From a virus (Duplodnaviria; Caudoviricetes): DNA of 64,000 bases. Numbering within the stretch: the stretch's first letter is position 1; every line of letters starts with the position of its first letter. A program made the position numbers and the translations under genes. Positions 3-26,021 of the stretch are shown in pieces. The notes under the pieces are model-generated. The model ran no database searches. It was not told the origin of the DNA and was given only the letters and a program-made list of their open reading frames with translations. Location: IMG/VR virus record IMGVR_UViG_3300025401_000648; one strand, given 5' to 3'.

Positions 3-743
3 TCTGAATCTGATATTGGCAAGTTAGGGTTGGCCGCTCTTAAAATCAAAGACGATCAACCTGTAATCAAACGTCCGCTAAATTTTGTATTGGAAGAAAG
101 ACCGCTACCTGATGATTGTTTATCCATCGATACCTGGGTAGCAGAAGATTGTCAAGATCCAGAACTGCTGGCTGTAATTGAATATATTGTATCAACTCGC
201 AAAATGTCTTGGGATTGGTATGATTGGCATTGGAGTGCCACCCCCGGTTATAGAGACCGTGTGATTATTCCGTTTTATCATGAAGGTAAAATTGTGGGTT
301 ATACTGGGCGCAAAATAACAGACGGTAAGCCCAAGTATTTGACTGATGCTCAACCAGGATATGTGTTCAATATAGATGCTCAGATCAACAATAGGCAGTA
401 TACTATAGTTGTAGAAGGACAGTTTGATGCTATTGCTATTCAAGGATGTGCTATAGGTCATAATGAGCCTAACGAAACTCAGATCATGCGGATTAACGCA
501 TTGAATCGTGAAGTTATAGTTGTGCCAGATCGAGATCGCCCAGGTGCCAAGATGATAAAAACAGCCATTGAACAAGGATGGAGTGTGAGCTTGCCCCCTT
601 GGGAAGATGACATCAAGGATGTGGCTGATGCTGTAAAAAGATATGGAAGACTGTATACCTTAACCACAATTTTAAAGTACAAAGTGTCAGGCGAGATAAA
701 TTTACATCTATTAAAGAAGAAACTAGAGAATGTCGAAGAATAA
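3..743 (+). CDS. DNA primase (TOPRIM), 5'-truncated by window edge
   Basis: Frame open from nt 3; TOPRIM motifs VVEGQFDAIA and VPDRDRPG; IIPFY..GKIVGYTGR; directly upstream of helicase. Confidence 0.9.
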   Translation, partial: SESDIGKLGLAALKIKDDQPVIKRPLNFVLEERPLPDDCLSIDTWVAEDCQDPELLAVIEYIVSTRKMSWDWYDWHWSATPGYRDRVIIPFYHEGKIVGYTGRKITDGKPKYLTDAQPGYVFNIDAQINNRQYTIVVEGQFDAIAIQGCAIGHNEPNETQIMRINALNREVIVVPDRDRPGAKMIKTAIEQGWSVSLPPWEDDIKDVADAVKRYGRLYTLTTILKYKVSGEINLHLLKKKLENVEE

Positions 744-3480: not shown

Positions 3481-4527
3481 TTATTTGTGTTGGCTTACAA
3501 TTTCAGGCTTAATTATGGCCTGTATGCCGTAAGCATCGTTAGTCCATACAACTAGGTTTTTCAGGGCTGTTATAGTCAACATACTGTCTAATCTCTTTTG
3601 TGCTTGTCGAACTTCGTCGCCCACTAACCAAGGATATGCTCCAACTCTGCTGGTAATAATTTGTTGACTTTCTGGATCAGCAATCATCTTTCGGGCCGCG
3701 GCAATCAATCTATCCTTGTTGGGGTTATTTTTATTGACCCAAATAACTTTTTGTAATACGTCCCTATAGCTTTTGACCAATAGCCAAGCATCGTAAAACT
3801 CGCCACTAGGATCTTTGCCCCATTTGGCCTTATATGCTTCGTTAAATGTACTTTGGCCCTTGGGAAAGTTTGTATCTGAAATTAACTTGCCTGTCTTAAT
3901 GTCCATGAGTCCTGCTGAGAACCATGTTTGATTAAATGCCAATGGTTCAATTTGTTGTTTGTAGAGAAAGGGATTTTCTCTAGTAACATTTAGCTCGCCT
4001 CTGATAAATCCCAGTGCTGTTTCAGAATTTTTCATACCCCGAACATAGATAACATGTTTACGAAAACAATCCAAATAGTCTGCCATCTTGGGCAACGGTC
4101 CACAAACCATCATGGTTATGGCCATGGCATCAGGATTCATACCAGACCCTGCGGCAAACTTGATGATGTTTTTGTAGGGGTCCTGTGTTTTATTATAGCT
4201 CACAATGATAGTTTGATTTTGTGCTAGGATAGGTTCATAGTCGTTAAAATTAAACTTAACATCTTCTAGTAGGTATGCTTCTGCTTGCCCGCCGTTGCTG
4301 TACCACATATAGGAGTCATCATAACGATATTTTTCTGCCCATTTGTTGCCGGCAGGAATATCTCGAGCGCCCTGTATAATTTCTGATCGAATAGGCTCGC
4401 CCAAGGCCTTGGCCAGTTCTGGAATAACCACAGTGGGCCACCCGGTGGCGCTGGGTACTACCACAGTCATATCTGCCAGTGCCAAATTACAGGCACAGAA
4501 TAAAATAATTAGTAAAAGTTTCTTCAT
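3481..4527 (-). CDS. tctC: Periplasmic substrate-binding protein, TctC/Bug-like
   Basis: Signal peptide MKKLLLIILFCACNLALA; TVVVP..G, I.GA..IPAGN, GELNVTRE; adjacent to TctA. Confidence 0.6.
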   Translation of the reverse strand: MKKLLLIILFCACNLALADMTVVVPSATGWPTVVIPELAKALGEPIRSEIIQGARDIPAGNKWAEKYRYDDSYMWYSNGGQAEAYLLEDVKFNFNDYEPILAQNQTIIVSYNKTQDPYKNIIKFAAGSGMNPDAMAITMMVCGPLPKMADYLDCFRKHVIYVRGMKNSETALGFIRGELNVTRENPFLYKQQIEPLAFNQTWFSAGLMDIKTGKLISDTNFPKGQSTFNEAYKAKWGKDPSGEFYDAWLLVKSYRDVLQKVIWVNKNNPNKDRLIAAARKMIADPESQQIITSRVGAYPWLVGDEVRQAQKRLDSMLTITALKNLVVWTNDAYGIQAIIKPEIVSQHK

Positions 4528-4533: not shown

Positions 4534-5991
4534 TCAATGATAGTTAATGGTTGTGCGGTTAAAAAATAACCCGTATACTAGTATTATTACACCAAAAGCA
4601 AGCAGACACAAACTAATTGGATGATGCAGGAGATCTTGAAATTTATACAGTGCCAAAAATTGCCCTGTGGTTAGTTCCAATCTATGACTAAGAGTAAAGC
4701 CTATGATAAAACTGATCCTACTGATTTTGAAATATTTAAAACATAGTCCCACTGCGGTCATTATGGACAATATGGCATAATCCTCCCAGCCGCCTGTATA
4801 GTCGACGCAGGACCAAACAATCAAGGCAATCAAAGGGGCCGCCCAATACTTAAAGGGCACACGGGTTATTGCTGTGGCATATTTTATGAACGCTATACTG
4901 ATAAAAAATGTTAGAACCAAACTTAGCATGAAACCAAAACTCAAGGCATCAAAAAATTTGTGATTTGACAGCAGTGTTTGGCTTCCTAGATCCAATCCCA
5001 CATAGGCCAGTAGGCTCATAACCACTGCTTCAAAAGGAGCCGCAGGTACACCAAACAATACCGTGGGCACATAGGCAGTGGCCTTTTGAGCCAGTGTGGC
5101 ACCCTCAGGACCAATTACACCTTTGACATTGCCTGATCCAAAAGGCATGGTTTCATTTTTGTTTGTGGCCACAGTTTGTCCATAGCTTAACCAATCCACA
5201 ATAGCCCCGCCTATACCAGGCAGTATACCAATTACCCCACCTATGATTCCACCTCTGACACTGATCCATCGGTTCGCCCACCAATCCCCAAATCCTTGTC
5301 GTATTTGTAGCCAATTATCTTGAGATGACTGTAGGTATGTGGTTTTAATTCTAACAGCGTTTATGATTTCAGGCAGTGCCATCAACCCTGCCATGACTGG
5401 AGCAAATTGTATACCATCGGCTAGATAAAACCAGCCACCAGTAAATCGTTCAGCGTTAGTCACAGGATCAGTACCAATCGATCCAGCAAATATACCCAAT
5501 ACCAGTCCCAGTATACCTCTTGCCCAATACTGACTGCTTAAGAAACAGATGCTGGTAACAGCCAAGATTAAAAATGCCCACTGTTCAGGTATACCAAAAC
5601 TCAACACCACATTGGCATAGTAGGGCAATAGTAAAATAGTTAACGTTCCCCATACTACGCCCTGACTCACTGAACTAAACACACTGGCACTCATGGCTCT
5701 GGCAGCTTCACCGCGTTGAGCCATGGGATATCCATCCACCATGGTGGCAGCACTACCCCCGCCTCCTGGTATGTTCATGACCACACTGGCAAACAGATCG
5801 CCCACACTGGCTGATACAACCACGGCAGTGGTAAACACAATAAGACTGTAGGGGTCGCCTCGGAAATAGGATATAAAACTATAGATAGTCAGCAAGGCTG
5901 TGCCGGCACCTGCCACAGGAATAATGCCAAACACAAATCCATATAGAGTGCCCAATAACAGCCAAGGTGTATATTGAATTACAAAGTCCAT
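4534..5991 (-). CDS. tctA: Tripartite tricarboxylate transporter large permease, TctA family
   Basis: 485-aa multi-TM protein; G.VFGIIPVAG, NIPG...SAAT.VDGYPMA.RGEA, GVIGILPGIGG, G...GVIGPE. Confidence 0.85.
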   Translation of the reverse strand: MDFVIQYTPWLLLGTLYGFVFGIIPVAGAGTALLTIYSFISYFRGDPYSLIVFTTAVVVSASVGDLFASVVMNIPGGGGSAATMVDGYPMAQRGEAARAMSASVFSSVSQGVVWGTLTILLLPYYANVVLSFGIPEQWAFLILAVTSICFLSSQYWARGILGLVLGIFAGSIGTDPVTNAERFTGGWFYLADGIQFAPVMAGLMALPEIINAVRIKTTYLQSSQDNWLQIRQGFGDWWANRWISVRGGIIGGVIGILPGIGGAIVDWLSYGQTVATNKNETMPFGSGNVKGVIGPEGATLAQKATAYVPTVLFGVPAAPFEAVVMSLLAYVGLDLGSQTLLSNHKFFDALSFGFMLSLVLTFFISIAFIKYATAITRVPFKYWAAPLIALIVWSCVDYTGGWEDYAILSIMTAVGLCFKYFKISRISFIIGFTLSHRLELTTGQFLALYKFQDLLHHPISLCLLAFGVIILVYGLFFNRTTINYH

Positions 5992-14973: not shown

Positions 14974-15084
14974 TTATTGATCTTGTCCTAGTAGGAAATC
15001 AAGTAAGTCTATGTCCAAGCGCCAATGGCTGTCATAGACCTGTGATTCTGCCCACATGAGGAATTCGTCGCTGTACTGGTTCAT
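14974..15084 (-). CDS. 36-aa acidic micro-ORF MNQYSDEFLMWAESQVYDSHWRLDIDLLDFLLGQDQ (not in ORF track)
   Basis: TGATG coupling to upstream gene; fills the gap. Confidence 0.55.
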   Translation of the reverse strand: MNQYSDEFLMWAESQVYDSHWRLDIDLLDFLLGQDQ

Positions 15085-15395
15085 CACATGCTCCAGTAGA
15101 GTTCTGAGCTGGGATCGCAAGCTCTGGGACACTCAGTTTCGATGACTACATCAGCGCCTGTCATCAAGCTCTTCACAGTCTTGTAAGTAGGAAAGTATTC
15201 AAACGAGAATCCGTCCTTGGGCTTATACAAGCTCTTGAGCTCACGGACTTCTCGCTCCATACCTGCTTCGTCCCGCCCCGTGAACTGATAAGTGCCAACG
15301 CATCGTTGTCCTACCTTGTTGCGGCTACCGTACTTGGACACCCTAGTCAAGCGCCGATCTGCCTTGTAGATCCGCAGTGTGTACTCTTGTTTCAT
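15084..15395 (-). CDS. Hypothetical early protein
   Basis: Own promoter and RBS. Confidence 0.75.
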   Translation of the reverse strand: MKQEYTLRIYKADRRLTRVSKYGSRNKVGQRCVGTYQFTGRDEAGMEREVRELKSLYKPKDGFSFEYFPTYKTVKSLMTGADVVIETECPRACDPSSELYWSM

Positions 15396-15438
15396 ATCAG
15401 CTCCTTAGTGTCTATGTGTGTATTATAGCACCATTTGA

Positions 15439-15846
15439 TTAGTCTGTCAACTGTCGATCCTTGAAAGTTTCATCATTGGCTAGAGGCTGTAGGAGATGGA
15501 TCAAGCCACCTTCCATGGCACTGAGTTCAGTCTCGCGCTCTAGTCTGATGTAGTTCAAGGTCCATAGGCTGGGAGTGACATTGAAGTGTTCATTCAACCA
15601 CTGCCAGCCCTTGGGATAGATTTGATGCTTCTTAGGCGCCCCGTGTGCCTTGGGCCAATGACTGTCCTGTCGGCTACGGATGAATCCCTTGCCCACATAG
15701 ATTACTCGTTGTTCTTCATCGGTTAGGATGTAGACTCCACGTAGGGTTCTTGGCAGGCTGGCCCAGTCCTGGAATGGCCGGTGTTCAACACGGCAGTCGA
15801 TGTTAAAGAACTCTTGAACCCTTGTGACTGTGTCTAATACTGTCAT
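15439..15846 (-). CDS. GIY-YIG nuclease family protein
   Basis: GVYIL-x7-IYVGKG, R..SH, E...I..LQP. Confidence 0.75.
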   Translation of the reverse strand: MTVLDTVTRVQEFFNIDCRVEHRPFQDWASLPRTLRGVYILTDEEQRVIYVGKGFIRSRQDSHWPKAHGAPKKHQIYPKGWQWLNEHFNVTPSLWTLNYIRLERETELSAMEGGLIHLLQPLANDETFKDRQLTD

Positions 15847-16046
15847 GCCAACTCCTTAAAGGTTCTGTGTCTAAGATCTATGGTGTAGGGCTTCTTCCAC
15901 AGCTCTACCTGTGTGCTGTCCTGTTTCACATAGCCAATAGCCCGTGCTGTACGTCCCCGAGGCGGCTCTGTGAACACATAGACATGATTGGCTGTGGGAT
16001 GCTCACCCCAGTCTGTGGTCTCTTGAAAAATATAGTGTCGAATCAT
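15843..16046 (-). CDS. Hypothetical early protein
   Basis: ATGA-coupled at both ends. Confidence 0.65.
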   Translation of the reverse strand: MIRHYIFQETTDWGEHPTANHVYVFTEPPRGRTARAIGYVKQDSTQVELWKKPYTIDLRHRTFKELA

Positions 16047-16117
16047 AATTTAGTGAGTATCCATACTTTGATTGCAAATATAGCTGCCACTGCCAGTGTG
16101 ATGTAAAGTGTCTGCAT
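16043..16117 (-). CDS. 24-aa hydrophobic micropeptide MQTLYITLAVAAIFAIKVWILTKL (not in ORF track)
   Basis: Own promoter 16146-16174, AAGGAG RBS, ATGA overlap downstream. Confidence 0.7.
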   Translation of the reverse strand: MQTLYITLAVAAIFAIKVWILTKL

Positions 16118-16183
16118 CTTGGGCTCCTTTTTAGTGTATGTGTTAATTATACTGCCATTTTAGTGAGTTGTCAACCAAAGGTG

Positions 16184-16292
16184 AACCCCGCGGCGTTTCA
16201 CAACGGGCGGGGTTCTATGCCCTTGGGACACTACCCCCTCGGGACTTTTGCTCGGGACACTACCCCCGAGGCTGACCAGCATCGCACTGGTC
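16184..16292. repeat. Structured non-coding element: 14-bp direct repeat plus three stems
   Basis: GGGACACTACCCCC at 16225-16238 and 16254-16267; AACCCCGC/GCGGGGTT (16184-16214); GACCAG/CTGGTC (16274-16292). Confidence 0.7.
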
Positions 16293-16300
16293 GGAGCAAT

Positions 16301-16513
16301 CTATGCTGTCTTAAATTCTTTGCCAACGTAAAAATCAATCAATCTACGTTGGATCATTGTTACCAAATCACCTGCGTCATCGGTCACGATGAATCGTACG
16401 GGGCAATTACCCCAGGTGTGCCTGTTCTGAAACTCAGCAAACCAACGCCTATGATCCCTGTTAGTGGGGTCGAAGGCCACATAGGGCCTTCCCAAATATG
16501 CCAGTTTGCTCAT
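16301..16513 (-). CDS. Hypothetical protein
   Basis: Start refined to MSKLAY, 1 nt after the upstream stop. Confidence 0.7.
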   Translation of the reverse strand: MSKLAYLGRPYVAFDPTNRDHRRWFAEFQNRHTWGNCPVRFIVTDDAGDLVTMIQRRLIDFYVGKEFKTA

Positions 16514-16514
16514 A

Positions 16515-16898
16515 TTAGAAGGATGCTTCTTCCATGTCAGCCAACTGCTTCTCAACTTGAGCCTTGGTAACCTTGGCTGCCTTAATCTTGATACCTTCCA
16601 GTGTGGGCTTGGTCTTCACGGCCTTGGCCACTTTCACTGTCTTAGGTGCTTCACTGCGCTTGTCCAACTCGGCTTCCAATGCTGCCTTGGCCGCAGGGTT
16701 CTTGTCGGCAAAGCCAATCTCCAACAATTTTTGAACTGCCTGCTCCTTGGTCAAAGGCTCAGTGAAGGCTTCAATCTGGACATCAGTGTGTCCGCCCTTC
16801 TCAAGAACCTTAACGCGAAGAGCGTCATTGGCAAATCGTGCTTTGTATTCGCCATTCAGTTTAGAATAGCCAGCGTGTGTAAAAGTCTTAGTAGTCAT
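16515..16898 (-). CDS. Lys/Ala-rich hypothetical early protein
   Basis: Promoter 16953-16981 and AGGA RBS. Confidence 0.75.
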   Translation of the reverse strand: MTTKTFTHAGYSKLNGEYKARFANDALRVKVLEKGGHTDVQIEAFTEPLTKEQAVQKLLEIGFADKNPAAKAALEAELDKRSEAPKTVKVAKAVKTKPTLEGIKIKAAKVTKAQVEKQLADMEEASF

Positions 16899-16988
16899 TT
16901 CAATTTCCTATGTGTGTGTTGATCAATCAGTGGCCCATCCACTGTACTTACTATTATACTGCCTTTTGAATTGGCTGTCAACCATTTT

Positions 16989-17180
16989 TTATGAATTAAC
17001 CGTTTCAAAAGGACTGTATTGTTCCTGGGGGAAAGCATCTTCCCATTCCACATTGACCTGTTCAATCCAATCGTAGACCATGTCAATGGGGCACTCCAAC
17101 ATCATGGCAATGGTCTTGGGACTATAACCTTCAATGTATAGTTGCTCAATGTCGTAGCTCAAATCCTTAATTTCAGTCAT
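16989..17180 (-). CDS. Small HTH-like protein
   Basis: IEQLYIEGYSPKTIAMMLECPIDMV resembles a short helix-turn-helix. Confidence 0.55.
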   Translation of the reverse strand: MTEIKDLSYDIEQLYIEGYSPKTIAMMLECPIDMVYDWIEQVNVEWEDAFPQEQYSPFETVNS

Positions 17181-17388
17181 CGTAGGCCTCCTCGCCCATC
17201 TCTGTTACTCGTTCTTCAACCACAACCAAATCAACAATCCTAGCTGTTTGGTCCACGTCGCTGATACCTTGGAATGCTGTGCGGAAACTTTGGTACTCGG
17301 CCAGGAAGTCAAACACAGCCAATTTGTCCCATTCATCAGGAACCTCAAGCTCCTGTGTCAAAACGGTTTGAACTCGTACTGTTTTCAT
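17173..17388 (-). CDS. Hypothetical protein
   Basis: Coupled overlaps at both ends. Confidence 0.65.
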   Translation of the reverse strand: MKTVRVQTVLTQELEVPDEWDKLAVFDFLAEYQSFRTAFQGISDVDQTARIVDLVVVEERVTEMGEEAYDD

Positions 17389-17861
17389 GCTACCTCCTCT
17401 TCAGCGGCCAAAGCCTCTGCCAACGGCACCAACTGCTTATACAACGCTTCATTGCGTTCATGTGTAGTGCCGCAGTACCAAACACCATCTCGCATGATGT
17501 AGTAGTATTCGCCACAGCAGTTATCAACCTGCTCAAAGAACTCTTCAAATGTGTGTGCTACCTTCCAGCTGACATTCTCTTCGCCGCGATCGCGTCCGTA
17601 AAAGGTACACATATCCTCGGTCAGTTGCTTGAACGCTTCTACTTCCTCTGCGGGCAAGACAAACTGGCTAAAGGCGTGCTTCTCGCCAATGTTAGGACGC
17701 AGGCTACTCAAGTCGCCCAGTGCTACGAGGTTATTGGCTTTGGCAGAGTCGTAGTGCTCTTGTAGGATAGCGCCATTGTGTGCCAAGTAGCCGTCCCAGT
17801 GGCAGTAGACTGACTTAACAATGTCACCGTGCATAATCCCAATACGTGAACGTGTTCCCAT
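17385..17861 (-). CDS. Conserved phage early protein (MGTRSRIG..YCHWDGY type)
   Basis: Recognisable motif; own promoter and RBS. Confidence 0.8.
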   Translation of the reverse strand: MGTRSRIGIMHGDIVKSVYCHWDGYLAHNGAILQEHYDSAKANNLVALGDLSSLRPNIGEKHAFSQFVLPAEEVEAFKQLTEDMCTFYGRDRGEENVSWKVAHTFEEFFEQVDNCCGEYYYIMRDGVWYCGTTHERNEALYKQLVPLAEALAAEEEVA

Positions 17862-17890
17862 GTAGTGCTCCTAGTGTGTGTAAGTGTTAA

Positions 17891-18109
17891 TTATACAGTA
17901 ACTCGATGCCAGCTGTCAACCGAACTAACGGCATCCCAAACAGCTTCGCGCACCGCTGTGTCTGTAGCCTCGCTGTAGACTTCTTCCTTGCTCACAGCAA
18001 TCAACAGGTTCATCACAGTGGCCCAGTTCAGAAAACGCTTGTTGGCCATCTCAACAATGTCGTTGATCACAGCATTGCCAGCATCTGTGAACATTCCATA
18101 GTCTTTCAT
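17891..18109 (-). CDS. Hypothetical early protein
   Basis: Own promoter and RBS; its stop overlaps the next -10 box. Confidence 0.75.
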   Translation of the reverse strand: MKDYGMFTDAGNAVINDIVEMANKRFLNWATVMNLLIAVSKEEVYSEATDTAVREAVWDAVSSVDSWHRVTV

Positions 18110-18170
18110 ATCAGCTCCTAGTGTGTGTAAGTCTTAATTATAACACAGGCCTGAGCCTGTGTCAACTCGT

Positions 18171-18461
18171 TTATGCGTGTTCTTTGTCTTCGACTAAGGT
18201 CAACATGTTAGCGGGCACACGCCAAAGTCCCTGCACGGTCTTGACTGTGACATACTTGATGGCGATCTTTGTAACAAAGCCAGTGATGTTCTGTCCAGTC
18301 TTGTTAGATGTGAAGCTGACGTTGTCGCCAACCATCAAACTACGGATTGTGGTCTTCTGCAGACGCGATTTGGCATACTTGACAGCATCGATGATGCTGG
18401 ACAATTCACTGTTGGTAAACGAACCAAACATGATTGCACTGTTGATTTTTTCGATATCCAT
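18171..18461 (-). CDS. Hypothetical protein with SH3/KOW-like C-terminus
   Basis: VGDNVSF...G.VTKI..K.VTV; own promoter. Confidence 0.7.
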   Translation of the reverse strand: MDIEKINSAIMFGSFTNSELSSIIDAVKYAKSRLQKTTIRSLMVGDNVSFTSNKTGQNITGFVTKIAIKYVTVKTVQGLWRVPANMLTLVEDKEHA

Positions 18462-18513
18462 GATAGCTCCTAGTGTGTGTAAGTCTTAATTATACTGCCC
18501 TTTGGCTGTCTTG

Positions 18514-18741
18514 TCAACCAAAGTACTTGATTAAACCTGCGGCACAGATAGCTATACCCACAACGTTGGTCACAATCTGTGGCTTATTACGTACCCGAAA
18601 GCTCCAAACCAAGTACAGCAGACCCCCTAAGGAGCCTGCCACGATATTCCAAGGATACATGTCCAAGGACATCAAAGTATACATGGCCATGAAGCAGGCA
18701 GTGCCTGCCCACTGGATGATGTCATTAGTCTTCAAGTTCAT
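18514..18741 (-). CDS. Small multi-pass membrane protein
   Basis: Three hydrophobic segments; start refined to MNLKTND (alternative TTG 18735). Confidence 0.65.
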   Translation of the reverse strand: MNLKTNDIIQWAGTACFMAMYTLMSLDMYPWNIVAGSLGGLLYLVWSFRVRNKPQIVTNVVGIAICAAGLIKYFG

Positions 18742-19312
18742 CCTCATTCTCTGCTTCGTATTCAGCCATGCCGTCTGAGATACCAAACATGTCATCCAAA
18801 TCCGCAGGGATCGCATCCTTGACAGTCACACTCGTGTAACCACCAATGTCATAAGTTTCATCACCGTTCTCATCGTGGATTCCACAGAAAGCCATGCCAG
18901 GCTCATAGTAGTAGGCACGCACTGTGAAGCCCTGCTCCATCAGTGCCTCATAGACTCCAGTAGGAGGGCTCCATGCTGAATCAAAGCCAAAGGTAATGCC
19001 CTTGTCATGTTGGGCATCATACTCAACAGTATCGTAGGGATTCACATCCCACTTGGTGCCCCATTCGTTGACACAGAAGTCATACCATGTAGCGTAGCCA
19101 TGCTTCTCACGATTGGCATTCTCTTGCTCTACGAGCTTGATCTGCTCAGGGCTATCATCAGCACCCACGCGGCCAGCCACAATGTGTAGGCTTTCTGGAA
19201 CGGGACGGGCAAAGTTACAGAACTTGCCTTCGTTAATTGCTTCAACCAAAGCATACATCTTGGTCTTGTCTTCGTGGTTGATCTCAACTGTGTTGTTGCA
19301 CCAATTTGGCAT
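18725..19312 (-). CDS. DUF1281/YubB ferredoxin-like domain protein
   Basis: MPNWCNN, EWGTKWD, FDSAWSPP, YYEPG..FCG. Confidence 0.8.
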   Translation of the reverse strand: MPNWCNNTVEINHEDKTKMYALVEAINEGKFCNFARPVPESLHIVAGRVGADDSPEQIKLVEQENANREKHGYATWYDFCVNEWGTKWDVNPYDTVEYDAQHDKGITFGFDSAWSPPTGVYEALMEQGFTVRAYYYEPGMAFCGIHDENGDETYDIGGYTSVTVKDAIPADLDDMFGISDGMAEYEAENEDELED

Positions 19313-19361
19313 ATTCGCTCCTTAAAGTGTGTTAGTGTAAGTGTATATTATACAACCAAAA

Positions 19362-19574
19362 TCATGCTTTGTCAAGCATTCGCATCAATTCATTGTTCAA
19401 AAAGTCCATCTCAGTCCGCTCCACATAGAAGTCTGTGGTGGGATCGTAGTAGGCACCTTCCTGGGGATCGTAATACAAGACACGACCTGAGAAGTTGAAC
19501 GGACCTTCAAGCCCCTTACGGGGGCCATACTTGTCACGCATCCTATCCCCAGTGTCCAAAACGCGATATCCCAT
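19362..19574 (-). CDS. Conserved small phage protein (GLEGPF..YYDP.EG.YYDP type)
   Basis: AAGGAG RBS before ATG 19574; own promoter. Confidence 0.75.
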   Translation of the reverse strand: MGYRVLDTGDRMRDKYGPRKGLEGPFNFSGRVLYYDPQEGAYYDPTTDFYVERTEMDFLNNELMRMLDKA

Positions 19575-19641
19575 TGTCAGCTCCTTTGTTGCTAAGTCTT
19601 TATTATACGATCGGTTAAACCATTTGTCAACCAAAAAAACA

Positions 19642-19716
19642 TGGCGCCGTGGATGGGACTCGAACCCACCTGATACTGATAGACAATCAGTTGCCCTCCC
19701 CGAGGACTACCACGGC
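19642..19716 (-). tRNA. tRNA-Asp (GTC) with encoded CCA
   Basis: GCCGTGG/CCACGGC acceptor stem, ACTGA-TTGTCTA-TCAGT anticodon arm, GTGGG-TTCGAGT-CCCAT T arm. Confidence 0.93.
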
Positions 19717-19792
19717 TTGAATTAGATTGGGCGGGCTGAGCGAGCACCTCGTTTAATGTTCAGCCCTCAGGCCAACACCCTGTAACTAGCTA

Positions 19793-19983
19793 GTTAGAAA
19801 AGAACTAAAGGAACTCCGGACTACTTGCTCTATACCGTCTATAGTGCTAGTGCCTTCGTCATTACTGCCTGCCTTATCCGCCGTTGCTCGAGGCCTTCAT
19901 GCCCTGGATACCAGGTACCCGTCGGTACGCTTCCATCTCTCCAGGCGCCTAGCGGTGTAGGTAACCTTTAATGCTTTCCTAAC
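19793..19983 (-). ncRNA. Candidate structured ncRNA, about 190 nt
   Basis: Own promoter 19997-20025, no RBS/ORF; 5' GTTAGGAAAG-C-ATTAAAGG pairs with 3' CCTTTAGT-T-CTTTTCTAAC; several internal hairpins. Confidence 0.7.
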
Positions 19984-20053
19984 TGTCTATGTCTTTATTA
20001 TAGCACCGGTTTAACCATTTGTCAATCCCGGGCTATAATACCCTTTCTTTCTA

Positions 20054-20125
20054 CTAGGACTTTGGTGCTGTAGGACAGCTCTTAAGTCCGTTCCAGTGCC
20101 ACTTGCGACAATGTGTACATTCCAT
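20054..20125 (-). CDS. 23-aa Cys/His micropeptide MECTHCRKWHWNGLKSCPTAPKS (not in ORF track)
   Basis: Own promoter 20152-20180 and AAGGAG RBS. Confidence 0.65.
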   Translation of the reverse strand: MECTHCRKWHWNGLKSCPTAPKS

Positions 20126-20183
20126 ATGTGCTCCTTAGTGTGTAAGTATGTATTATACTGCCTTTTGGGCGCCTTGTCAACTA

Positions 20184-20393
20184 TTACAACCAGCAGTCGT
20201 CCGCATCTTCCACAGTCTCAGTCTGTCCCCCAATGTAGCCTCCCTGGAAGCCATTGGGGTTTTCCAAAACCAATCGAGTGCGATTGAACCCGCCCTCTGT
20301 GATTCGCACAACGCGACCACTCTGTTCAATGTCTGCTTTGAACGACACCCAGTCGCCTACCCGTACTTCTTGTCCGTCAACGTAGGCTCTCAT
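20184..20393 (-). CDS. Hypothetical SH3-like protein
   Basis: Start refined to MRAYVDG, 1 nt after the upstream stop; VGDWVSFK.DIEQSG. Confidence 0.7.
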   Translation of the reverse strand: MRAYVDGQEVRVGDWVSFKADIEQSGRVVRITEGGFNRTRLVLENPNGFQGGYIGGQTETVEDADDCWL

Positions 20394-20394
20394 A

Positions 20395-20775
20395 TCAGCA
20401 CTCCGGATCAAAGTCATGCCACTCTTGGGCCTCATCGGGTTGGCCATCGCTTTCGCAAAGCCCGTCAAACTCCATCAACTGCTCAAGCGCATCACGCACT
20501 CGCCCACTCTCCGAAGTGTAGAAAGTATACTCGCCCAATGTCGTGCGACCCTCGCCTTCTCGGATGTATTCAAAGCCACCGTAGTAGTCCAAGCGTGAGC
20601 CTGTGTATGACACAATAGTGTCTTCATCTACAAACAACCTTCCGCAACGGCTATCCAAGCCCAAGTGTTCAGCTGGCTCTTGTCGCAGGCCCTGCACGTG
20701 ACGCTCCACTACCTCAGCGATAGCATCCAGCAGGTCTGGTGTTGAATCAAACTGTGTATCTGTAAAGTAACCCAT
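20395..20775 (-). CDS. Hypothetical protein with DGQPDEAQEWHDFDP.C tail
   Basis: Own promoter and RBS; recognisable C-terminal motif. Confidence 0.75.
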   Translation of the reverse strand: MGYFTDTQFDSTPDLLDAIAEVVERHVQGLRQEPAEHLGLDSRCGRLFVDEDTIVSYTGSRLDYYGGFEYIREGEGRTTLGEYTFYTSESGRVRDALEQLMEFDGLCESDGQPDEAQEWHDFDPEC

Positions 20776-20838
20776 TTCAGCTCCTAGTGTGTTAGTGTAA
20801 GTATGTATTATAAGGCCTTTTTAGGGGCCTGTCAATGC

Positions 20839-21045
20839 CTAGCTACAAAATATTTCTTTGCTAAGGATCTTGTCCTCTACCAACTGATAGCAGGCATTTA
20901 GTGTGTAGGTCATGATCAAGTGTGCGTTGGCCCGCTGACTTCGGGGCAAGCTGTCAATCAAAGCCTGGATCTCGCCCAATGATGGGGAGGTGAAAAAATT
21001 GTTACGGGGAATGGGGTTCTGTACCACGTCGTATGTTCCGCTCAT
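20839..21045 (-). CDS. Hypothetical early protein
   Basis: Own promoter and RBS. Confidence 0.7.
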   Translation of the reverse strand: MSGTYDVVQNPIPRNNFFTSPSLGEIQALIDSLPRSQRANAHLIMTYTLNACYQLVEDKILSKEIFCS

Positions 21046-21083
21046 CGCATGCTCCTTAAAGTGTGTTAGTGTATATTATACTA

Positions 21084-21227
21084 TCAATCTGCTAGTGTGT
21101 CAACTATTATTGTCTCAGTAAACTCGTCCTCAACACGCTCTAGTGCTACCTCTAGTGCCTCTGTTTCGTCTGTAGCTTCAACTTCAATCTCAAATTCTCT
21201 TGTAATTTGTACTAAAAATGTTTTCAT
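21084..21227 (-). CDS. 47-aa acidic protein MKTFLVQITREFEIEVEATDETEALE... (not in ORF track)
   Basis: Own promoter 21247-21275, AAGGAG RBS; EVEA.DE.EA pattern similar to DpnD/PcfM-like domains. Confidence 0.7.
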   Translation of the reverse strand: MKTFLVQITREFEIEVEATDETEALEVALERVEDEFTETIIVDTLAD

Positions 21228-21321
21228 CTTCGCTCCTTAAAAACTTATTATAACGCATTCTGTCCAAAATGTCAAATGCGCTATAAAAAGCCCTTACGGG
21301 CTGTAGGGTTATTATATAACA

Positions 21322-21477
21322 TTAATCCACGTAGTAGTCAACCGTTTGCAATAGTGTGCTCATTGCGTTCTCTAACTCGTTAAAGCACTCCAGTTCCACT
21401 AGTTTCTCGCCATCGCATGTTGCTGTTAACAGCATAGCTTCCACTTCCGCTAGTTTAACAAGTATTGCATCTTTCAT
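21322..21477 (-). CDS. Hypothetical 51-aa protein
   Basis: Promoter 21506-21534, AAGGAG RBS before MKDAILV. Confidence 0.7.
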   Translation of the reverse strand: MKDAILVKLAEVEAMLLTATCDGEKLVELECFNELENAMSTLLQTVDYYVD

Positions 21478-21651
21478 TTGTGCTCCTTTTTTAGTGTATG
21501 TGTGTATTATACTGCCAATCCGCCAGCGTGTCAACAAGTTTATTGTAAAGTTTTGTAAACCATGACTGTTGTGAAAATACAACACAAAAAACAGTTGACA
21601 CAGAGCCAGTACTGCGCTATAATACACACTTACACTAAAAGGAGTACTAAA

Positions 21652-21891
21652 ATGGGTCAATACGCTAACACAGTAAACGCATACGCTATGTCCGCCGCTC
21701 GCGCAAAAGTATACACTATGCAAAACACGCTACAGAGCTACGGTCAGACCGCTTATATGCTAAATGTAAGCACAGCCAAGTTCCGTAAGGACATCGAAGC
21801 TAAAAAAGTAAAATTTATTGCCCTATTGGAAAAAGAGCGTGTTGCGCAATTACAACAAGAGCTGGCACGTTTACAAGCAAAAACTGCTTGA
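21652..21891 (+). CDS. Hypothetical early protein
   Basis: Promoter 21595-21623, AAGGAG RBS before MGQYANT. Confidence 0.75.
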   Translation: MGQYANTVNAYAMSAARAKVYTMQNTLQSYGQTAYMLNVSTAKFRKDIEAKKVKFIALLEKERVAQLQQELARLQAKTA

Positions 21892-21943
21892 CATCTCGCC
21901 CCGAAAGGGCGTATAATACACACTTAAACACTAAAGGAGCACT

Positions 21944-22168
21944 ATGTCAAAAGCACTTAACAAACGCATTGCCGACGCCTTCGCTACAATTTACGACCAG
22001 GGCGATAACGGACTAGAGTACATGGACGGCCACACTGCGCTGGACCCGGCTCTAATGGAGCACTTTTACAATGACACAGTAGAGACACTGTCTAAAGCAG
22101 ATCGCACCCGCATGGCCCTAATGTTGGAGACCATTGCCAGCGATATGGACATGGACTTAGAGTGTTAA
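21944..22168 (+). CDS. Hypothetical early protein
   Basis: Promoter 21888-21917, AAGGAG RBS. Confidence 0.75.
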   Translation: MSKALNKRIADAFATIYDQGDNGLEYMDGHTALDPALMEHFYNDTVETLSKADRTRMALMLETIASDMDMDLEC

Positions 22169-22175
22169 AAGTGAT

Positions 22176-22190
22176 GGGGACTAGGTCCCC
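22176..22190. terminator. GC-rich hairpin between convergent transcripts
   Basis: GGGGAC-TAG-GTCCCC; no clear T-tract. Confidence 0.45.
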
Positions 22191-22202
22191 TATACACTAG
22201 TA

Positions 22203-22383
22203 CAGCACGTGAGCAAGTATCTCCATGCTGTCCCGCCTCGCTTGTTCCTGCTGTGATCAAGCTCACCACTAGCCTTAACCTGTTAGAGTTTAGGTCACGA
22301 GTTCGGACTGTGTGCGCCGGATCTATGATCACTAGCTCAATGTGATTTAGCTGACCCGACGGACTCTAACCTCCTGATCAGCA
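22203..22383 (-). ncRNA. Candidate structured ncRNA downstream of tRNA-CAT
   Basis: Nested helices: 22249-22260/22374-22383, GTTAGAGT/ACTCTAAC (22282-22289/22363-22370), 22292-22297/22352-22357, plus hairpin 22203-22230; no RBS-led ORF. Confidence 0.5.
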
Positions 22384-22425
22384 TCACACATCTTTATCCA
22401 CTGGTCCTACGGTTTATCAAACATT

Positions 22426-22503
22426 TGGTGGGCCGTCTTGGAGTCGAACCAAGCACCAATGGATTATGAGTCCACTGCTCTAACCAACATGAGCTAACGG
22501 CCC
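22426..22503 (-). tRNA. tRNA with CAT anticodon, probably Ile2 (lysidine type), encoded CCA
   Basis: GGGCCGT/ACGGCCC acceptor stem, A discriminator, CTCATAA loop, TTCGACT T loop. Ile2 vs Met assignment is an inference from the GGGCC acceptor and G1-C72 pair. Confidence 0.9.
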
Positions 22504-22528
22504 TATATACACTCTATACACTCTATAC

Positions 22529-23061
22529 AGCGGGGTTTTTCTTGCATGCAAGAACTTAGACTACGAGCTCCTGTTGCTGAATCCACTATATACAGTGTGT
22601 ATTAGTATCTTAGTCTATGTACTTATTATACACGGACGCCACGGTGTGAGCAATCAGGAAGTTGTTGACACCGTTGTACACACGCAACACTAGGGTAAAA
22701 TAATGGTAGAAAAATTGTGAAGAAAACACGAGAAATCCCAGTCTAATCCTGGTGTGAAAATGGTGAGAAATGGTGGAGAATCATGGTGTTCTAGCGGGGT
22801 TTTTGGTGTGAAACAGTGCCTAAACTAGGGATTTTTGGCTAAAATTTTTTTGGATGGGTGGAGTCACCGTCGGCTATAGTCAAATGGTCCGTTGAAGATT
22901 CAGTCAAAATCCGTTGAAGATTCACCAGTTCTTCACCAATTCTTCAGTCTGAATCCCGTCACAATCTTCACCAAGTTTCTACCCGTTCTTCAACTGCTTA
23001 CAGCGGGGTTTTCACACTGGATGATGCTGTCCGCGCTGAGTTCGTACAGCGGGGTTTTTAC
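22529..23061. repeat. Non-coding region with 4 x AGCGGGGTTTT and other short repeats
   Basis: Copies at 22529, 22793, 23002, 23049; CCGTTGAAGATTCA x2 near 22890-22925; TATACACTC tandem at 22506-22528. Confidence 0.75.
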
Positions 23062-23651
23062 GCCACTACTTCAAACAGTGTGTTCACGTGTTGAAGTCTG
23101 ATATCACGTTCCTGCAGGCTATTACTAATAGCCATGCGTTCGAATGTGGGTACTTCGTAGGTCCAAAGATTGTTGACGTTATCCTGTCGACGTGCGATTC
23201 TATTAGGCGTTCCATCTGGGCTGAATGGAATTTCCAAATTACCCCGGTCTGTAGTAATATGCTCATACTCACATCGGGGAATAATAAACCAATAAAACTG
23301 GTTGGGTCCTAGATGATTGCCACGTCGATTTAGAATCTGTACTCTGAGATCACCAGTCTTGTTATGTAATCCCGATATGTTAGCTCCATAGCTCTTGCCC
23401 TTGCTGTGTCCACGACAAGTAGCGTATTTGACTTCACTACCATCGCGGATATCCCAACCCTTTTGACTGTCATGCCACCATCCACTGAGGTTAGCCACTG
23501 CCAACTCCATGAGAGTACTTACTTGTAGTCCGCCCAATTTAGCCAGCAGGGTTACAGTTTTTGGATCCATAGACTCACCCCCGGGAATATATCTACGGAA
23601 CTGTTCAAAGTGTAGGCATTCCTGTTCAGTGGCTGATTTAATTGTGCTCAT
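23058..23651 (-). CDS. Hypothetical protein, possible PD-(D/E)xK nuclease
   Basis: MELAVA...GWDIRDGSEVKYAT resembles E..D..E.K; weak. Confidence 0.45.
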   Translation of the reverse strand: MSTIKSATEQECLHFEQFRRYIPGGESMDPKTVTLLAKLGGLQVSTLMELAVANLSGWWHDSQKGWDIRDGSEVKYATCRGHSKGKSYGANISGLHNKTGDLRVQILNRRGNHLGPNQFYWFIIPRCEYEHITTDRGNLEIPFSPDGTPNRIARRQDNVNNLWTYEVPTFERMAISNSLQERDIRLQHVNTLFEVVA

Positions 23652-23677
23652 GGTTCTCTCTCCGATCTTGTGAGGGT

Positions 23678-23875
23678 TTATTTTGTAAATCTTGGCATAC
23701 CTGCCTCAGTGCCTGCATATTGGAAATTATCCAGTAGGGGCACCAGCCGGGCCATGGCCGTGGCATTGTGTCGTTCTATTACTCGATGCTCGCCATCAAT
23801 CAACATGTAATACAAATTAGTTGTACCTTCGTCAACCTGCGGCCCAAAAATATATTCCAAATCTTCTAATATCAT
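23678..23875 (-). CDS. Hypothetical protein
   Basis: ATGA-coupled to the paralog array. Confidence 0.6.
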   Translation of the reverse strand: MILEDLEYIFGPQVDEGTTNLYYMLIDGEHRVIERHNATAMARLVPLLDNFQYAGTEAGMPRFTK

Positions 23876-24117
23876 AGTTCAACTCCAAAATGTTGTTTAA
23901 TCGCTTGTGTGCCCTTGCGTTTCATACTGCCTTGATATGGCACCATTTCTTTCCAAGTATCTACTTCTGCTTCAAACGATTGAGCACATTCTCTCACAAT
24001 CAACTCGGCGAACTTTTCTGAAAATTGTAGCAAGCCTTCATATGTCATGGTGTCCCAGGTGTGACTGAATTCGCTATCTAGTGTCTTTCCCATAAGGGCT
24101 TTAATTCGTTCGTTCAT
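23872..24117 (-). CDS. MNERI/FAELIVREC/HFGVE family paralog 1
   Basis: Start refined to MNERIKALM; shared motifs. Confidence 0.8.
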   Translation of the reverse strand: MNERIKALMGKTLDSEFSHTWDTMTYEGLLQFSEKFAELIVRECAQSFEAEVDTWKEMVPYQGSMKRKGTQAIKQHFGVEL

Positions 24118-24272
24118 AACCCTATCTGCTTTCCGAATAAACAATACACCTCAAACCATCGTGTGGGTGGATTCTCAATGAAGTAAGGATTCACACGGAA
24201 TGTGATTTCCCAATCTCTTGACCACTGAAAATGTCTAGTGCCAAATCTAATATTAAACCAAAGATTGCTCAT
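24114..24272 (-). CDS. 52-aa aromatic-rich protein MSNLWFNIRFGTRHFQW... (not in ORF track)
   Basis: ATGA overlaps at both ends fill the gap exactly. Confidence 0.7.
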   Translation of the reverse strand: MSNLWFNIRFGTRHFQWSRDWEITFRVNPYFIENPPTRWFEVYCLFGKQIGL

Positions 24273-24484
24273 TCTTCAACTCCGAAATGTTCTTTTACAA
24301 ATTTACCAATGCTTTGCCATTTTTCTCTAGTAGCATCAGCATTGTCGGCAACCTCGGCACATTCCCGAACGATCAACTCGGCGAACTTTTCTAATTCGTC
24401 ATTATCAAATACAGTTAGTCCATCATTGTCATTATCAGGATGTTTAAGAGCCTGTAGGGCAAGTTGTTTGGCTTGCTCATTCAT
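24269..24484 (-). CDS. MNERI family paralog 2
   Basis: LEKFAELIVRECA...KEHFGVEE. Confidence 0.8.
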   Translation of the reverse strand: MNEQAKQLALQALKHPDNDNDGLTVFDNDELEKFAELIVRECAEVADNADATREKWQSIGKFVKEHFGVEE

Positions 24485-24687
24485 TATTTGACTCCAAAAT
24501 TTGGATAGTATTCCACAACCTGTTTGATAATAACTGAACCATTTGATTCAACACAGCGGCACACCCGCCCGGTAGAAGGAAATTTCCTACTTACCCAGTC
24601 TGGTTGAACGGTCTCCTGTTCATCAATTTCAAATGACGCATAATACGCCAGCAAATCTTTTTCTTCCGATTCTGTTAGTTTAATCAT
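24484..24687 (-). CDS. Hypothetical protein ending in the family FGVK tail
   Basis: Unrelated body; 3' end TTTTGGAGTCAAATAA shared with 24687..24911. Confidence 0.7.
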   Translation of the reverse strand: MIKLTESEEKDLLAYYASFEIDEQETVQPDWVSRKFPSTGRVCRCVESNGSVIIKQVVEYYPNFGVK

Positions 24688-24911
24688 TATTTGACTCCAA
24701 AATGTTCTTTAATCGTTCTCACACAACCATTAGCGGCACTACGAACATCATTCAAGCGACTGTCATTGGCAATAGCATTAGCACATTCTCTCACAAGCAA
24801 CTCGGCGAATTTTTCTATATCTTCATTAGATTCAACCCAATAGTAACTGTAATCTTTTTGTGATAGAGATAAGCCAGCCTGTTCAGCAAGTTCTTTAATT
24901 CGTTCGTTCAT
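24687..24911 (-). CDS. MNERI family paralog 3
   Basis: MNERIKELAEQAG...FAELLVRECA...KEHFGVK. Confidence 0.8.
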   Translation of the reverse strand: MNERIKELAEQAGLSLSQKDYSYYWVESNEDIEKFAELLVRECANAIANDSRLNDVRSAANGCVRTIKEHFGVK

Positions 24912-25083
24912 CTTTTGTTTTCTTAATGAATAGTTGCGTACCAGCAGGAAGATTCTTAAACATCATGGGCACAGTTCGTTCGTCAGATTGATCGGTATGG
25001 ACTGTATGCCCGTCCCATAATTGTCTAACTTGGGGGAACTTTTCTGTTCCTATCACTCCTGCTATTTCAAATTCTTCGTTCAT
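24895..25083 (-). CDS. Hypothetical protein
   Basis: Starts ATGAACGAA like the family; overlaps both neighbours. Confidence 0.6.
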   Translation of the reverse strand: MNEEFEIAGVIGTEKFPQVRQLWDGHTVHTDQSDERTVPMMFKNLPAGTQLFIKKTKDERTN

Positions 25084-25289
25084 TCTCCAACTCCGAAATG
25101 TTTTTTTATATAATCCGCCGCAATAACAGGAGTGTGCCCGTGTTCGTTTTCAATTTCTACATACACATTTGGAAATAATCCAGCACATTCCCGAACAATC
25201 AACTCGGCGAATGTTTCTAGTAGGTCGCCGCCCTCTTCATAGTGAATTATTCCTGCTTCTAGTATTAATTCCTGAATTCGTTCGTTCAT
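25080..25289 (-). CDS. MNERI family paralog 4
   Basis: MNERIQELILEAG...FAELIVRECA...KKHFGVGE. Confidence 0.8.
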   Translation of the reverse strand: MNERIQELILEAGIIHYEEGGDLLETFAELIVRECAGLFPNVYVEIENEHGHTPVIAADYIKKHFGVGE

Positions 25290-25498
25290 TGTTCAACTCC
25301 GAAATGTTGTTGGATTCTGCGGGCGAGGATTCCCACCAGCTGGGGAGGTTCTGCTTGGGGTGGATTGGTCTTTACCCCAGTTACCACCTGTTCCACGCAC
25401 GCCGCCACAACCAGTTCAGCTAGCCTTTGGGCACGTCCTGCCATTTCAGGTGCCGCATAGCCTGCTTGAAGCATCAACTGTCTTAATCTAGGGTTCAT
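25286..25498 (-). CDS. MNERI family paralog 5 (divergent)
   Basis: MNPRLRQLMLQAG...LAELVVAAC...QHFGVEQ. Confidence 0.75.
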   Translation of the reverse strand: MNPRLRQLMLQAGYAAPEMAGRAQRLAELVVAACVEQVVTGVKTNPPQAEPPQLVGILARRIQQHFGVEQ

Positions 25499-25537
25499 CG
25501 GGGCCTTTCTTTCTCTATATATGTGTGTAAAAACTAT

Positions 25538-25566
25538 ATTATACAGTGAGCTAGGGCCTTTGTCAA
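25538..25566 (-). promoter_or_regulatory. sigma70 promoter driving the paralog operon
   Basis: TTGACA-17 nt-TATAAT. Confidence 0.85.
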
Positions 25567-25627
25567 TCTGCTCAATGTTGTCACAACTCAGTCAACACAA
25601 TGGGGTATTAGGGCGTTATTAGTGTAT

Positions 25628-25768
25628 ATGAGCCTATTTCTACTACAGATAAGGGAATTACTTTCAAGGGGTTTGGATCCCTTGGAAATAGCACACAGGC
25701 TACACTTGGATCCTGATCTAGTAGTTCGTTGTATAGATTTGATCACATCAGCTAGGGATCTAGTCTAA
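25628..25768 (+). CDS. 46-aa HTH-like protein MSLFLLQIRELLSRGLDPLEIAHRLHLDPDLV... (not in ORF track)
   Basis: HTH-like pattern resembling 16989..17180. Confidence 0.5.
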   Translation: MSLFLLQIRELLSRGLDPLEIAHRLHLDPDLVVRCIDLITSARDLV

Positions 25769-25799
25769 AATCTGCGCTTCGCGCCGGACTTCTCAGGGC

Positions 25800-26021
25800 T
25801 TATACTTGGCCCCACTTCAATAAAAACATGGTATAGAGTCTACGGGTCATTGTGACTTGACTGGTCTTGGCTTCATACTGCCATTCCTCACGATTTTGGC
25901 CCAGTAGCCATGTCAGTATCTGATCACTCTTGGTTGAGATACAGGCGCCCCTATCGTGGTCCATGTTGGTCTTGGTGAGTTTTTGCCAAATCACTGGGGT
26001 CTTGGGCTCATGAGGAATCAT
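25800..26021 (-). CDS. Small hypothetical protein (..WL....W....FLLKW type)
   Basis: Similar pattern to 10941..11204; TAAATA 4 nt upstream. Confidence 0.6.
   Translation of the reverse strand: MIPHEPKTPVIWQKLTKTNMDHDRGACISTKSDQILTWLLGQNREEWQYEAKTSQVTMTRRLYTMFLLKWGQV

Follow-up and report, generated by a model that had tools for sequence, protein, structure and literature searches.

A 64,000-nt stretch of viral DNA (IMG/VR record IMGVR_UViG_3300025401_000648; Duplodnaviria, Caudoviricetes), here called the window and meaning the whole stretch that was analysed, carries on its minus strand the gene for a 191-nt structured RNA, and our analyses give good support to the view that this RNA represents a real and new family of structured RNAs of freshwater jumbo phages, of which the window holds a canonical copy. 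A 19-bp helix closes the fold, which contains two three-way junctions and has two arms, each with a near-invariant GACG loop. An undescribed phage structured RNA had been proposed here from the letters of the DNA alone (the original prediction), and that proposal is borne out by the lack of a matching Rfam 15 family, the phage-like character of the window, the many homologues and the strong covariation among them. As far as seen, the family occurs only in uncultured jumbo phages of fresh water that are distant relatives of PA5oct-like phages. The window, which is phage DNA, carries tail-fibre families, a DnaB helicase, an ATP-dependent DNA ligase and a member of the GP88 family; judged by the helicase, its closest cultured relatives are the jumbo phages PA5oct (51.5% at the amino acid level) and Atu_ph07.

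Searches for known RNAs and for homologues

When the whole window was scanned with Rfam 15 at gathering thresholds, two tRNAs were the only hits, and a permissive scan of positions 19500-20200 at E≤10 added to the tRNA only chance-level matches below 15 bits. The original prediction had not recognised the RNA as a transfer-messenger RNA (tmRNA), RNase P RNA, signal recognition particle (SRP) RNA, 6S RNA or small ribozyme, in agreement with both scans. Ten homologous loci likewise returned tRNAs only, and the tRNA island of a complete relative, G002, returned only tRNAs and one permuted tmRNA. There was no blastn match to the locus among 50,697 GenBank phage records and no match in an exact-pattern scan of 185,579 prokaryote species genomes for its 5' signature, and the covariance model of the RNA, R1 (204 positions, 51 pairs), found nothing at E≤1 in the cultured relatives PA5oct and Atu_ph07. 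A published description was not found in the literature; the family may nevertheless be one of the unnamed clusters of the 2023 survey of ~10,000 candidate viral RNAs (PMC10690425).

Homologues were gathered with IMG/VR probes and with one metagenome scan for the 5' signature, which gave more than 119 stretches, mostly from lake metagenomes. Seventy-four distinct full-length copies of 191-245 nt were extracted from freshwater viral and metagenome contigs. Conservation of the first 24 bases is in part built in, these bases being set by the scan pattern; the sequence downstream was free to vary. IMG/VR loci L089, L090, L092, L093, L095 and L096, which had matched short probes, were rejected as chance matches in coding DNA.

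G002 is a complete 346,856-bp phage with terminal repeats and holds one copy of the RNA (locus L220, 167 bits), in which the outer sequence of the closing helix, P1, is entirely different with its pairing kept. A divergent subfamily, consisting of L222 (65 bits) and L006 (54 bits), also has a wholly different yet paired P1, and it retains both GACG loops, the junction motif CAUGAA and a second junction, CAGUAAU in the window, in the form GUAAUG. Tandem paralogous copies of the RNA occur in L205, L118 and L166, and the second copy in L205 (63 bits) has no promoter and a compensated P1. In L222 (~1500-1560, minus strand) and L006 (~3650-3720) the 3' strand of P1 was observed inside the TTGACA-TATAAT spacer of the next gene, so that the RNA gene and the downstream promoter overlap. 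We also observed a sub-lineage (L009, L010, L050 and L195) in which both GACG loops are lost, the loops there being UUGAG-like and palindromic UAGCUAG. In L009, L010 and L050 a ribosome-binding site and an open reading frame come straight after the RNA in place of tRNA-Asp, and in L195 the next elements are a promoter and a further small RNA module.

Covariation and strand

The folding energy of the single sequence was unremarkable when compared with shuffles (z = -1.51), and the case for an RNA therefore rests on comparative evidence. Two alignments were tested, one fitted to R1 and one made by MAFFT without regard to structure. Paired cells amounted to 96.2% in the model-fitted alignment as against 85.1% in shuffles, and to 94.8% as against 86.1% in the MAFFT alignment, with changes on both sides at 30 and 27 of the 51 pairs, respectively. 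The covariation score of the model-fitted alignment was 0.368, compared with 0.166 after shuffling and at most 0.093 when partners were slid by 1-3 columns; the corresponding values for the MAFFT alignment were 0.313, 0.166 and at most 0.089. None of 500 shuffles of the model-fitted alignment reached the observed values. Two of the checks suggested with the original prediction turned out in its favour: the Rfam scan gave only tRNAs at gathering threshold, and the homologue search followed by covariation analysis gave 74 copies with 27-30 of 51 pairs changed on both sides.

R1 scores lie between 110 and 202 bits on one strand and between 15 and 30 bits on the opposite strand. The window copy itself scores 164.1 bits on the minus strand (E = 6.8e-51, model positions 1-204) and 23.4 bits on the plus strand; the minus-strand match is by construction, as this copy is among the seed sequences of R1. 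Matches independent of the seed are those of the G002 copy, L222, L006 and the second L205 copy, at the scores given above. The asymmetry of the R1 scores fixes the RNA strand and excludes an inverted repeat at the DNA level.

Secondary structure

The fold was derived from module-wise folding, RNAalifold and pair statistics, and its parts are listed in Table 1 with the other elements of the locus.

Table 1. Elements of the RNA locus, in window coordinates
Element	Position	Strand	Evidence or remark
Sigma-70-type promoter: TTGACA (20025-20020), 17 nt, TG-TATAAT (20002-19997)	19997..20025	-	12/12 matches, TG extension
191-nt structured non-coding RNA, GUUAGGAAAG to CUUUUCUAAC	19793..19983	-	Full covariance-model match, no Rfam family
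P1, 5' strand, GUUAGGAAAG-C-AUUAAAGG; partner 19811-19793	19965..19983	-	99.4% of cells paired
P2a (CCUAC) and P2b (CCGCU), 5' strands	19951..19961	-	Partners 19872-19868 (GCAGG) and 19882-19878 (GGCGG)
P3 arm: outer helix 19948-19940 with 19908-19901, internal loops, apical P3b 19928-19915	19901..19948	-	
Junction AUGAA, then short variable P4 hairpin	19886..19900	-	AUGAA near-invariant; P4 pairs covary
Single-stranded junction CAGUAAU, P2a to 3' arm	19861..19867	-	AGUAAUGA >90% conserved
3' arm: GAC (19860-19858) with GUU (19814-19812), irregular hairpin, P6 (19844-19830)	19812..19860	-	
P1, 3' strand, CCUUUAGU-U-CUUUUCUAAC	19793..19811	-	Window mapping
Module X, ~60-nt small conserved structured element	19720..19782	-	nhmmer and RNAalifold
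tRNA-Asp(GUC): encoded CCA, short D-loop, anticodon loop UUGUCUA (U37)	19642..19716	-	ARAGORN; Rfam tRNA, 43.2 bits
T-run (UGUUUUUUUGG): run of seven T directly after the tRNA CCA	19631..19641	-	Sequence, promoter list

The two ends of the RNA had been predicted to pair over 18 bp; 18-19 bp are present, and the pairing is kept across homologues even where the P1 sequence differs, as in the G002 copy, L222, L006 and the second L205 copy, where it has been wholly replaced. P1 can be extended to 22-23 bp through the flanks (G)ACA and UGU(C). A UUA junction separates P1 from P2a, in which CCUAC (19961-19957) of the window copy pairs with GCAGG (19872-19868) with one A.C mismatch; the family consensus is CCUAC with GUAGG for P2a and CCRYU with GGYGG for P2b. 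Covariation in P2 takes the form of C-G to G-C (55:19) and of G-C to A-U (56:18).

P2b, P3 and P4 meet in the first three-way junction, the strands of which are (C)AUGAA and GGAGAAGC. The P3 arm pairs GCGCCTGGA with TCCAGGGC, and its outer helix is formed by GCGCCUGGA (19948-19940) with UCCAGGGC (19908-19901). Changes on both sides affect six of the seven outer pairs and all five pairs of P3b, whose loop (19923-19920) reads GACG in 63 of the 74 homologues. The final base of the P3 arm (19901) is the C of CAUGAA. P4 often has a GNRA loop and in homologues carries insertions of 0 to ~60 nt. The base helix of the 3' arm adjoins P1 without a spacer, which makes a second three-way junction; this helix changes from A-U to G-C in four sequences, and all three P6 pairs change on both sides. 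Two architectures of the 3' arm exist, each ending in a hairpin capped by A-GACG-(U/G), with a conserved A ahead of the loop. The P6 loop of the window is GACGG (19839-19835), and GACG plus one further nucleotide is found in 70 of the 74 homologues.

Both GACG loops that the original prediction had pointed out (19923-19920 and 19839-19836) are therefore present and conserved. Its six inner stems fared less evenly: CCGCT/GGCGG (P2b), GTACC-GACG-GGTAC (P3b) and CTATA-GACGG-TATAG (P6) are conserved pairings, whereas the other three are complementary in the window copy without being the pairings that covary. For CTAC/GTAG, the conserved partner of CCUAC is the GCAGG of P2a; AGGC/GCCT is displaced by P2a, the 3' strand of which AGGC overlaps, and by the P4 hairpin; and CCTGG-TAT-CCAGG gives way to the outer helix of P3.

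Formation of a homodimer by self-pairing of the loops was considered and rejected, ACGU being palindromic only in the GACGU type (36 of 74) and not in the GACGG type (32 of 74). Neither the window nor the complete phage genome showed an excess of other GACG-capped hairpins over permuted loops, which leaves the picture of a sponge with a regulon without support.

Transcription unit, downstream neighbours and processing

The predicted dedicated RNA operon is recovered as a promoter, the RNA, a small element, a tRNA and a T-run, with no open reading frame (ORF) among them. Its consensus promoter, at 12 of 12 matches, had been said to lack a downstream ORF, and no ORF of at least 30 codons was found on the minus strand within 19983-19793. 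GUUAG follows the end of a promoter of the form TTGAC(A/G)-16..18-TATAAT by 12-13 nt in 61 of 72 homologous contexts (13 nt in 60), and in the remaining 11 the RNA is preceded by another conserved non-coding module. Transcription would start ~6-8 nt ahead of GUUAG, around 19990, and the T-run is the likely end of the operon; this T-run was not called by the terminator scan, and the next minus-strand promoter starts at 19630.

The tRNA-Asp of the original prediction was called by both ARAGORN and Rfam, and what it had termed a small hairpin RNA proved to be a conserved element of ~60 nt with a covarying hairpin, module X. This module is laid out as CAGGGUG, a covarying hairpin, AUUAAACGAGG, a short hairpin, GCCCGCCC and the tail AAUCUAAUU. 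Twenty-five nhmmer matches represent 11 distinct variants, in which the first hairpin shows compensatory changes (RNAalifold consensus) and AUUAAACGAGG is invariant; the tail CCAAUCUAAUU is common to other small modules. Module X had no match in Rfam.

We surveyed what follows the RNA in the 66 contexts whose downstream sequence runs to 250 nt or more. In 24 of them the RNA is followed by a new promoter plus ORF, in 12 by module X, as in the window, and in eight by a tRNA within 15 nt; module Y follows in seven contexts, module Z in seven, module W in three and other neighbours in five. Neighbours as varied as these speak for a free-standing RNA and against a cis-regulatory leader. Module Y is itself a tRNA-like element of ~70 nt, observed in L128 (~2066-2145) and also in L103, L112, L136 and L209, where it separates the RNA from tRNA-Asp. 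Its parts include a 5-bp acceptor-like stem ending in a 3' GCCA and a T-arm-like hairpin (CUGAG-UUCGCAA-CUCAG) that precedes an anticodon-arm-like hairpin with the 7-nt loop UGAGACU, and it was called by neither ARAGORN nor Rfam.

Release of the RNA by tRNA processing, as originally suggested, is plausible. In eight homologous contexts tRNA-Asp starts no more than 15 nt from the last base of the RNA (at +2 in most), and RNase P would there make the 3' end of the RNA; in the window, where module X lies between the two, an additional cut would be needed.

The expression data consist of Logan contigs only, of depth 3-4, from runs that were chosen because they hold the window stretch. Three lake metatranscriptome libraries gave contigs of 158-493 nt over 19792-20019, and a fourth library together with one more contig from the three covered the part with the tRNA and module X. 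None lay over flanking coding sequence, an absence that we do not use as evidence. The contigs over the RNA are of the L085-type variant, in which RNA positions 31/104 and 42/78 have changed in pairs so that P2b and P3 stay intact. We regard these contigs as a weak hint of expression.

Association with tRNA-Asp

A tRNA lies within 450 nt downstream of the RNA in 19 of the 66 contexts, and in all 19 it is tRNA-Asp(GUC), built on at least three unrelated tRNA backbones. Neighbourhoods of the flanking protein gene that are without the RNA are also without tRNA-Asp, which indicates that the RNA and tRNA-Asp move together as a single cassette, within a region whose promoter-gene cassettes are shuffled in other respects. 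G002 has 27 tRNAs, and its copy of the RNA stops 11 nt short of the one tRNA-Asp (L220:1721-1795). Among the 27, no other tRNA has a pyrimidine at position 37, and this tRNA-Asp has the loop UUGUCUA in common with that of the window; overall, U37 is found in 16 of the 19 RNA-adjacent tRNA-Asp genes. The permuted tmRNA of G002 (RF04321, 104.7 bits) was located at L230:10852-11219 (G002 110852-111219), in an island with the 27 tRNAs and the RNA.

GAC is a codon for Asp, and GACG is complementary to U33-G34-U35-C36 of tRNA-Asp; in the 3' arm, AGACG is complementary to UGUCU, which takes in U37. Anticodon-loop variants have been proposed to evade tRNA-targeting defences (eLife 2023, PMC10264068), and U37 may be a variant of this kind.

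Proposed mode of action and alternatives

On balance, the RNA is probably a stable, highly structured, trans-acting RNA of an uncatalogued family that docks a partner through its two GACG loops. It would be transcribed early by the host RNA polymerase as the first unit of a stable-RNA operon made up of the RNA, module X and tRNA-Asp. RNase P would cut at the tRNA and so separate the units, with a further cut by RNase III or RNase E at the long P1 duplex or close to it. Together, the two identical GACG loops would form a bivalent docking surface, the working part of the RNA, with the anticodon loop of the co-encoded tRNA-Asp as the preferred partner, and two tRNA-Asp molecules could in this way be held, chaperoned, shielded or titrated. 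We put forward docking of the tRNA-Asp anticodon loops only tentatively, and its stricter form, a trans-acting bivalent RNA in which each GACG loop acts as a mimic of an Asp codon and takes hold of the anticodon loop of the U37 tRNA-Asp encoded by the phage, is somewhat more doubtful again.

Several observations weigh against this proposal. Loops of four or five bases offer poor geometry for loop-loop pairing, and the P3b loop is GCCG in five variants, including that of G002, which has no tRNA with a matching anticodon. Three RNA-adjacent tRNA-Asp genes have an ordinary A37 while the RNA loops are unchanged, and no tRNA is nearby in 47 of the 66 contexts or in the divergent subfamily. The adjacency of tRNA-Asp could be inherited synteny, and we estimate the post-hoc chance of finding GAC in a conserved loop of 4-5 nt beside a GUC tRNA at ~3-5%. 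No genome-wide excess of GACG hairpins marks a regulon. The discrete transcript of ~190 nt is a prediction from sequence, and the contigs from RNA libraries are of low depth, come from pre-selected runs and may reflect DNA carry-over.

A protein that reads both loops is about as likely as docking of tRNA-Asp. The RNA would then be a scaffold or decoy on which two GACG hairpins at fixed geometry hold a protein of the phage or the host, either as two copies or as a dimer, in the manner of sponge RNAs or of the thrS operator with its two anticodon-like hairpins, and its adjacency to tRNA-Asp would reflect shared transcription and processing only. This possibility, which deserves attention even though we would not ourselves expect it to prevail, fits the conservation of the loop sequence while the stems covary, and it fits the 47 contexts without a nearby tRNA; since GCCG is tolerated, a G-N-C-G recognition rule suits the loops better than codon pairing does, and GACG-type loops are also present on hairpins of another co-located small module. 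However, no candidate protein was found; neighbouring genes vary, and Pfam was uninformative on the small ones. Further GACG hairpins, which such a protein might also bind, were not in excess either in the rest of the window or in a complete phage genome.

The remaining alternatives are much less probable. A self-cleaving or processing ribozyme, with an active site built from the conserved junctions and cleavage of the precursor at the ends of the RNA itself, would part tandem copies, small modules and tRNAs, and would suit the head-to-tail units without intervening promoters in L205, L118 and L166, the highly conserved junction nucleotides and the conserved flanks (G)ACA and UGU(C) that bound the unit. 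We consider it improbable, as the RNA matches no Rfam ribozyme family, no pseudoknot or known catalytic core was recognised in it, and the long terminal duplex and adjacent tRNA provide ordinary RNase III and RNase P routes. Even less probable is a cis-acting leader, that is, a riboswitch or T-box-like sensor controlling the downstream tRNA or gene. The lack of a consistent expression platform, the differing downstream elements with a new promoter in 24 of 66 contexts, the silence of the Rfam T-box and riboswitch models, the absence of any visible T-box sequence or terminator/antiterminator and the restriction of a UGGN element to one type of 3' arm outweigh the position of the RNA at the 5' end of its transcript, the codon-like GAC of its loops and the ribosome-binding site and ATG that begin 2 nt after P1 in L009, L010 and L050. 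Finally, we give almost no credence to an element acting as DNA, such as a miniature inverted-repeat transposon or a protein-binding inverted repeat, or to a chance fold. The 19-bp terminal inverted repeat, which in homologue L097 is a perfect repeat of 21 nt, might suggest the former and the modest z-score the latter, but G.U pairs occur on one strand only, R1 scores are strand-asymmetric, the inner helices covary, the promoter spacing is fixed, and neither target-site duplications nor a transposase were found. A miniature inverted-repeat element was rejected on the same strand, G.U-pair, covariation and spacing evidence.

Comparison with known RNAs

The rnaC and rnaD RNAs of phage T4 are co-transcribed with tRNAs and excised by host RNases. 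They are the nearest analogues of the window RNA in arrangement, being phage small stable RNAs that lie in a tRNA cluster beside a tRNA in the T4 record. They differ from it in length (139 and 119 nt), in lying downstream of tRNA-Arg and in having no pair of GACG loops, and R1, run with filters off on the T4 tRNA region, gave at most 1.5 bits over their coordinates. GOLLD and ROOL resemble the window RNA as elaborate, covarying non-coding RNAs of phages and prophages that often lie next to tRNA genes, GOLLD being also partly lake-derived, but they are three to four times larger and their Rfam models are silent here. Both form RNA-only multimeric assemblies, according to a preprint (bioRxiv 10.1101/2024.12.08.627333).

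If the RNA docks tRNA, and only then, it resembles Stem I of the T-box, where a structured RNA presents a codon plus a purine to an anticodon loop. The differences are considerable: the window RNA has no T-box sequence, terminator/antiterminator, K-turn or distal T-loop platform, it has two tetra- or pentaloops in place of one internal specifier loop, and it is encoded in trans with its own promoter. Identity with a T-box riboswitch was rejected for want of an Rfam match and of a consistent expression platform, UGG being found in only one of the two 3'-arm types. In the SRP Alu domain, too, a long helix closes a junction from which two hairpins arise, and there is a single-stranded junction resembling GUAAU; we rejected this identity because the loops of the window RNA are identical (GACG) and not mutually complementary, and because there is no S domain and no SRP match at E≤10. 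RNase P-, 6S- and SRP-like RNAs were also rejected, having no Rfam match, and a P4 pseudoknot, a central bubble and a domain IV were not recognised by inspection. A retron msr-msd was considered on account of the inverted ends and rejected, as no reverse transcriptase domain was found by Pfam in the five small flanking ORFs and the downstream partners vary. With RNAs of the CsrB/RsmZ type and the thrS operator the window RNA shares a short loop motif repeated on separate hairpins whose stems vary; it differs from them in having two sites only, on a rigid conserved scaffold, in its motif, which is GACG and not GGA or an anticodon, and in the lack of matching hairpins elsewhere in the genome.

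Other features of the window

The region 15000-26000, mostly on the minus strand, contains 17 perfect TTGACA-17/18-TATAAT promoters, about one per small gene; the expectation of 17.8 is for weaker matches of any kind. Its gene-plus-promoter cassettes are reshuffled among related phages. At 22526-23057 (minus strand) AAACCCCGCTRKA occurs four times, with 0.19 expected, in an ORF-poor part beside a tRNA-Met where promoters diverge; these repeats may be replication-origin iterons or binding sites of a regulator. Positions 4534-5991 (minus strand) of this phage DNA encode a TctA tricarboxylate-transporter subunit of full length (Pfam, 272 bits), likely an auxiliary metabolic gene.

Implications

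New classes of large structured RNA with good support seldom come to light, and earlier ones, namely riboswitches, ribozymes, GOLLD and ROOL, opened new biology. The present family is abundant in lake viromes and lies within a translation-RNA island of jumbo phages, and its two junctions and two identical loops give it an anatomy clean enough for biochemical and structural work. Should the tRNA idea prove wrong, the family would still be ready as an Rfam candidate and for functional screens in PA5oct-like jumbo phages. The coupling of the RNA to one abnormal (U37) tRNA is a testable lead on how giant phages manage translation or defence. If the proposed capture of tRNA-Asp is true, the phage could hold a single tRNA, protect it, for example from anticodon nucleases, or meter it, and bivalent tRNA binding would be a free-standing, virus-encoded counterpart of the T-box specifier principle.

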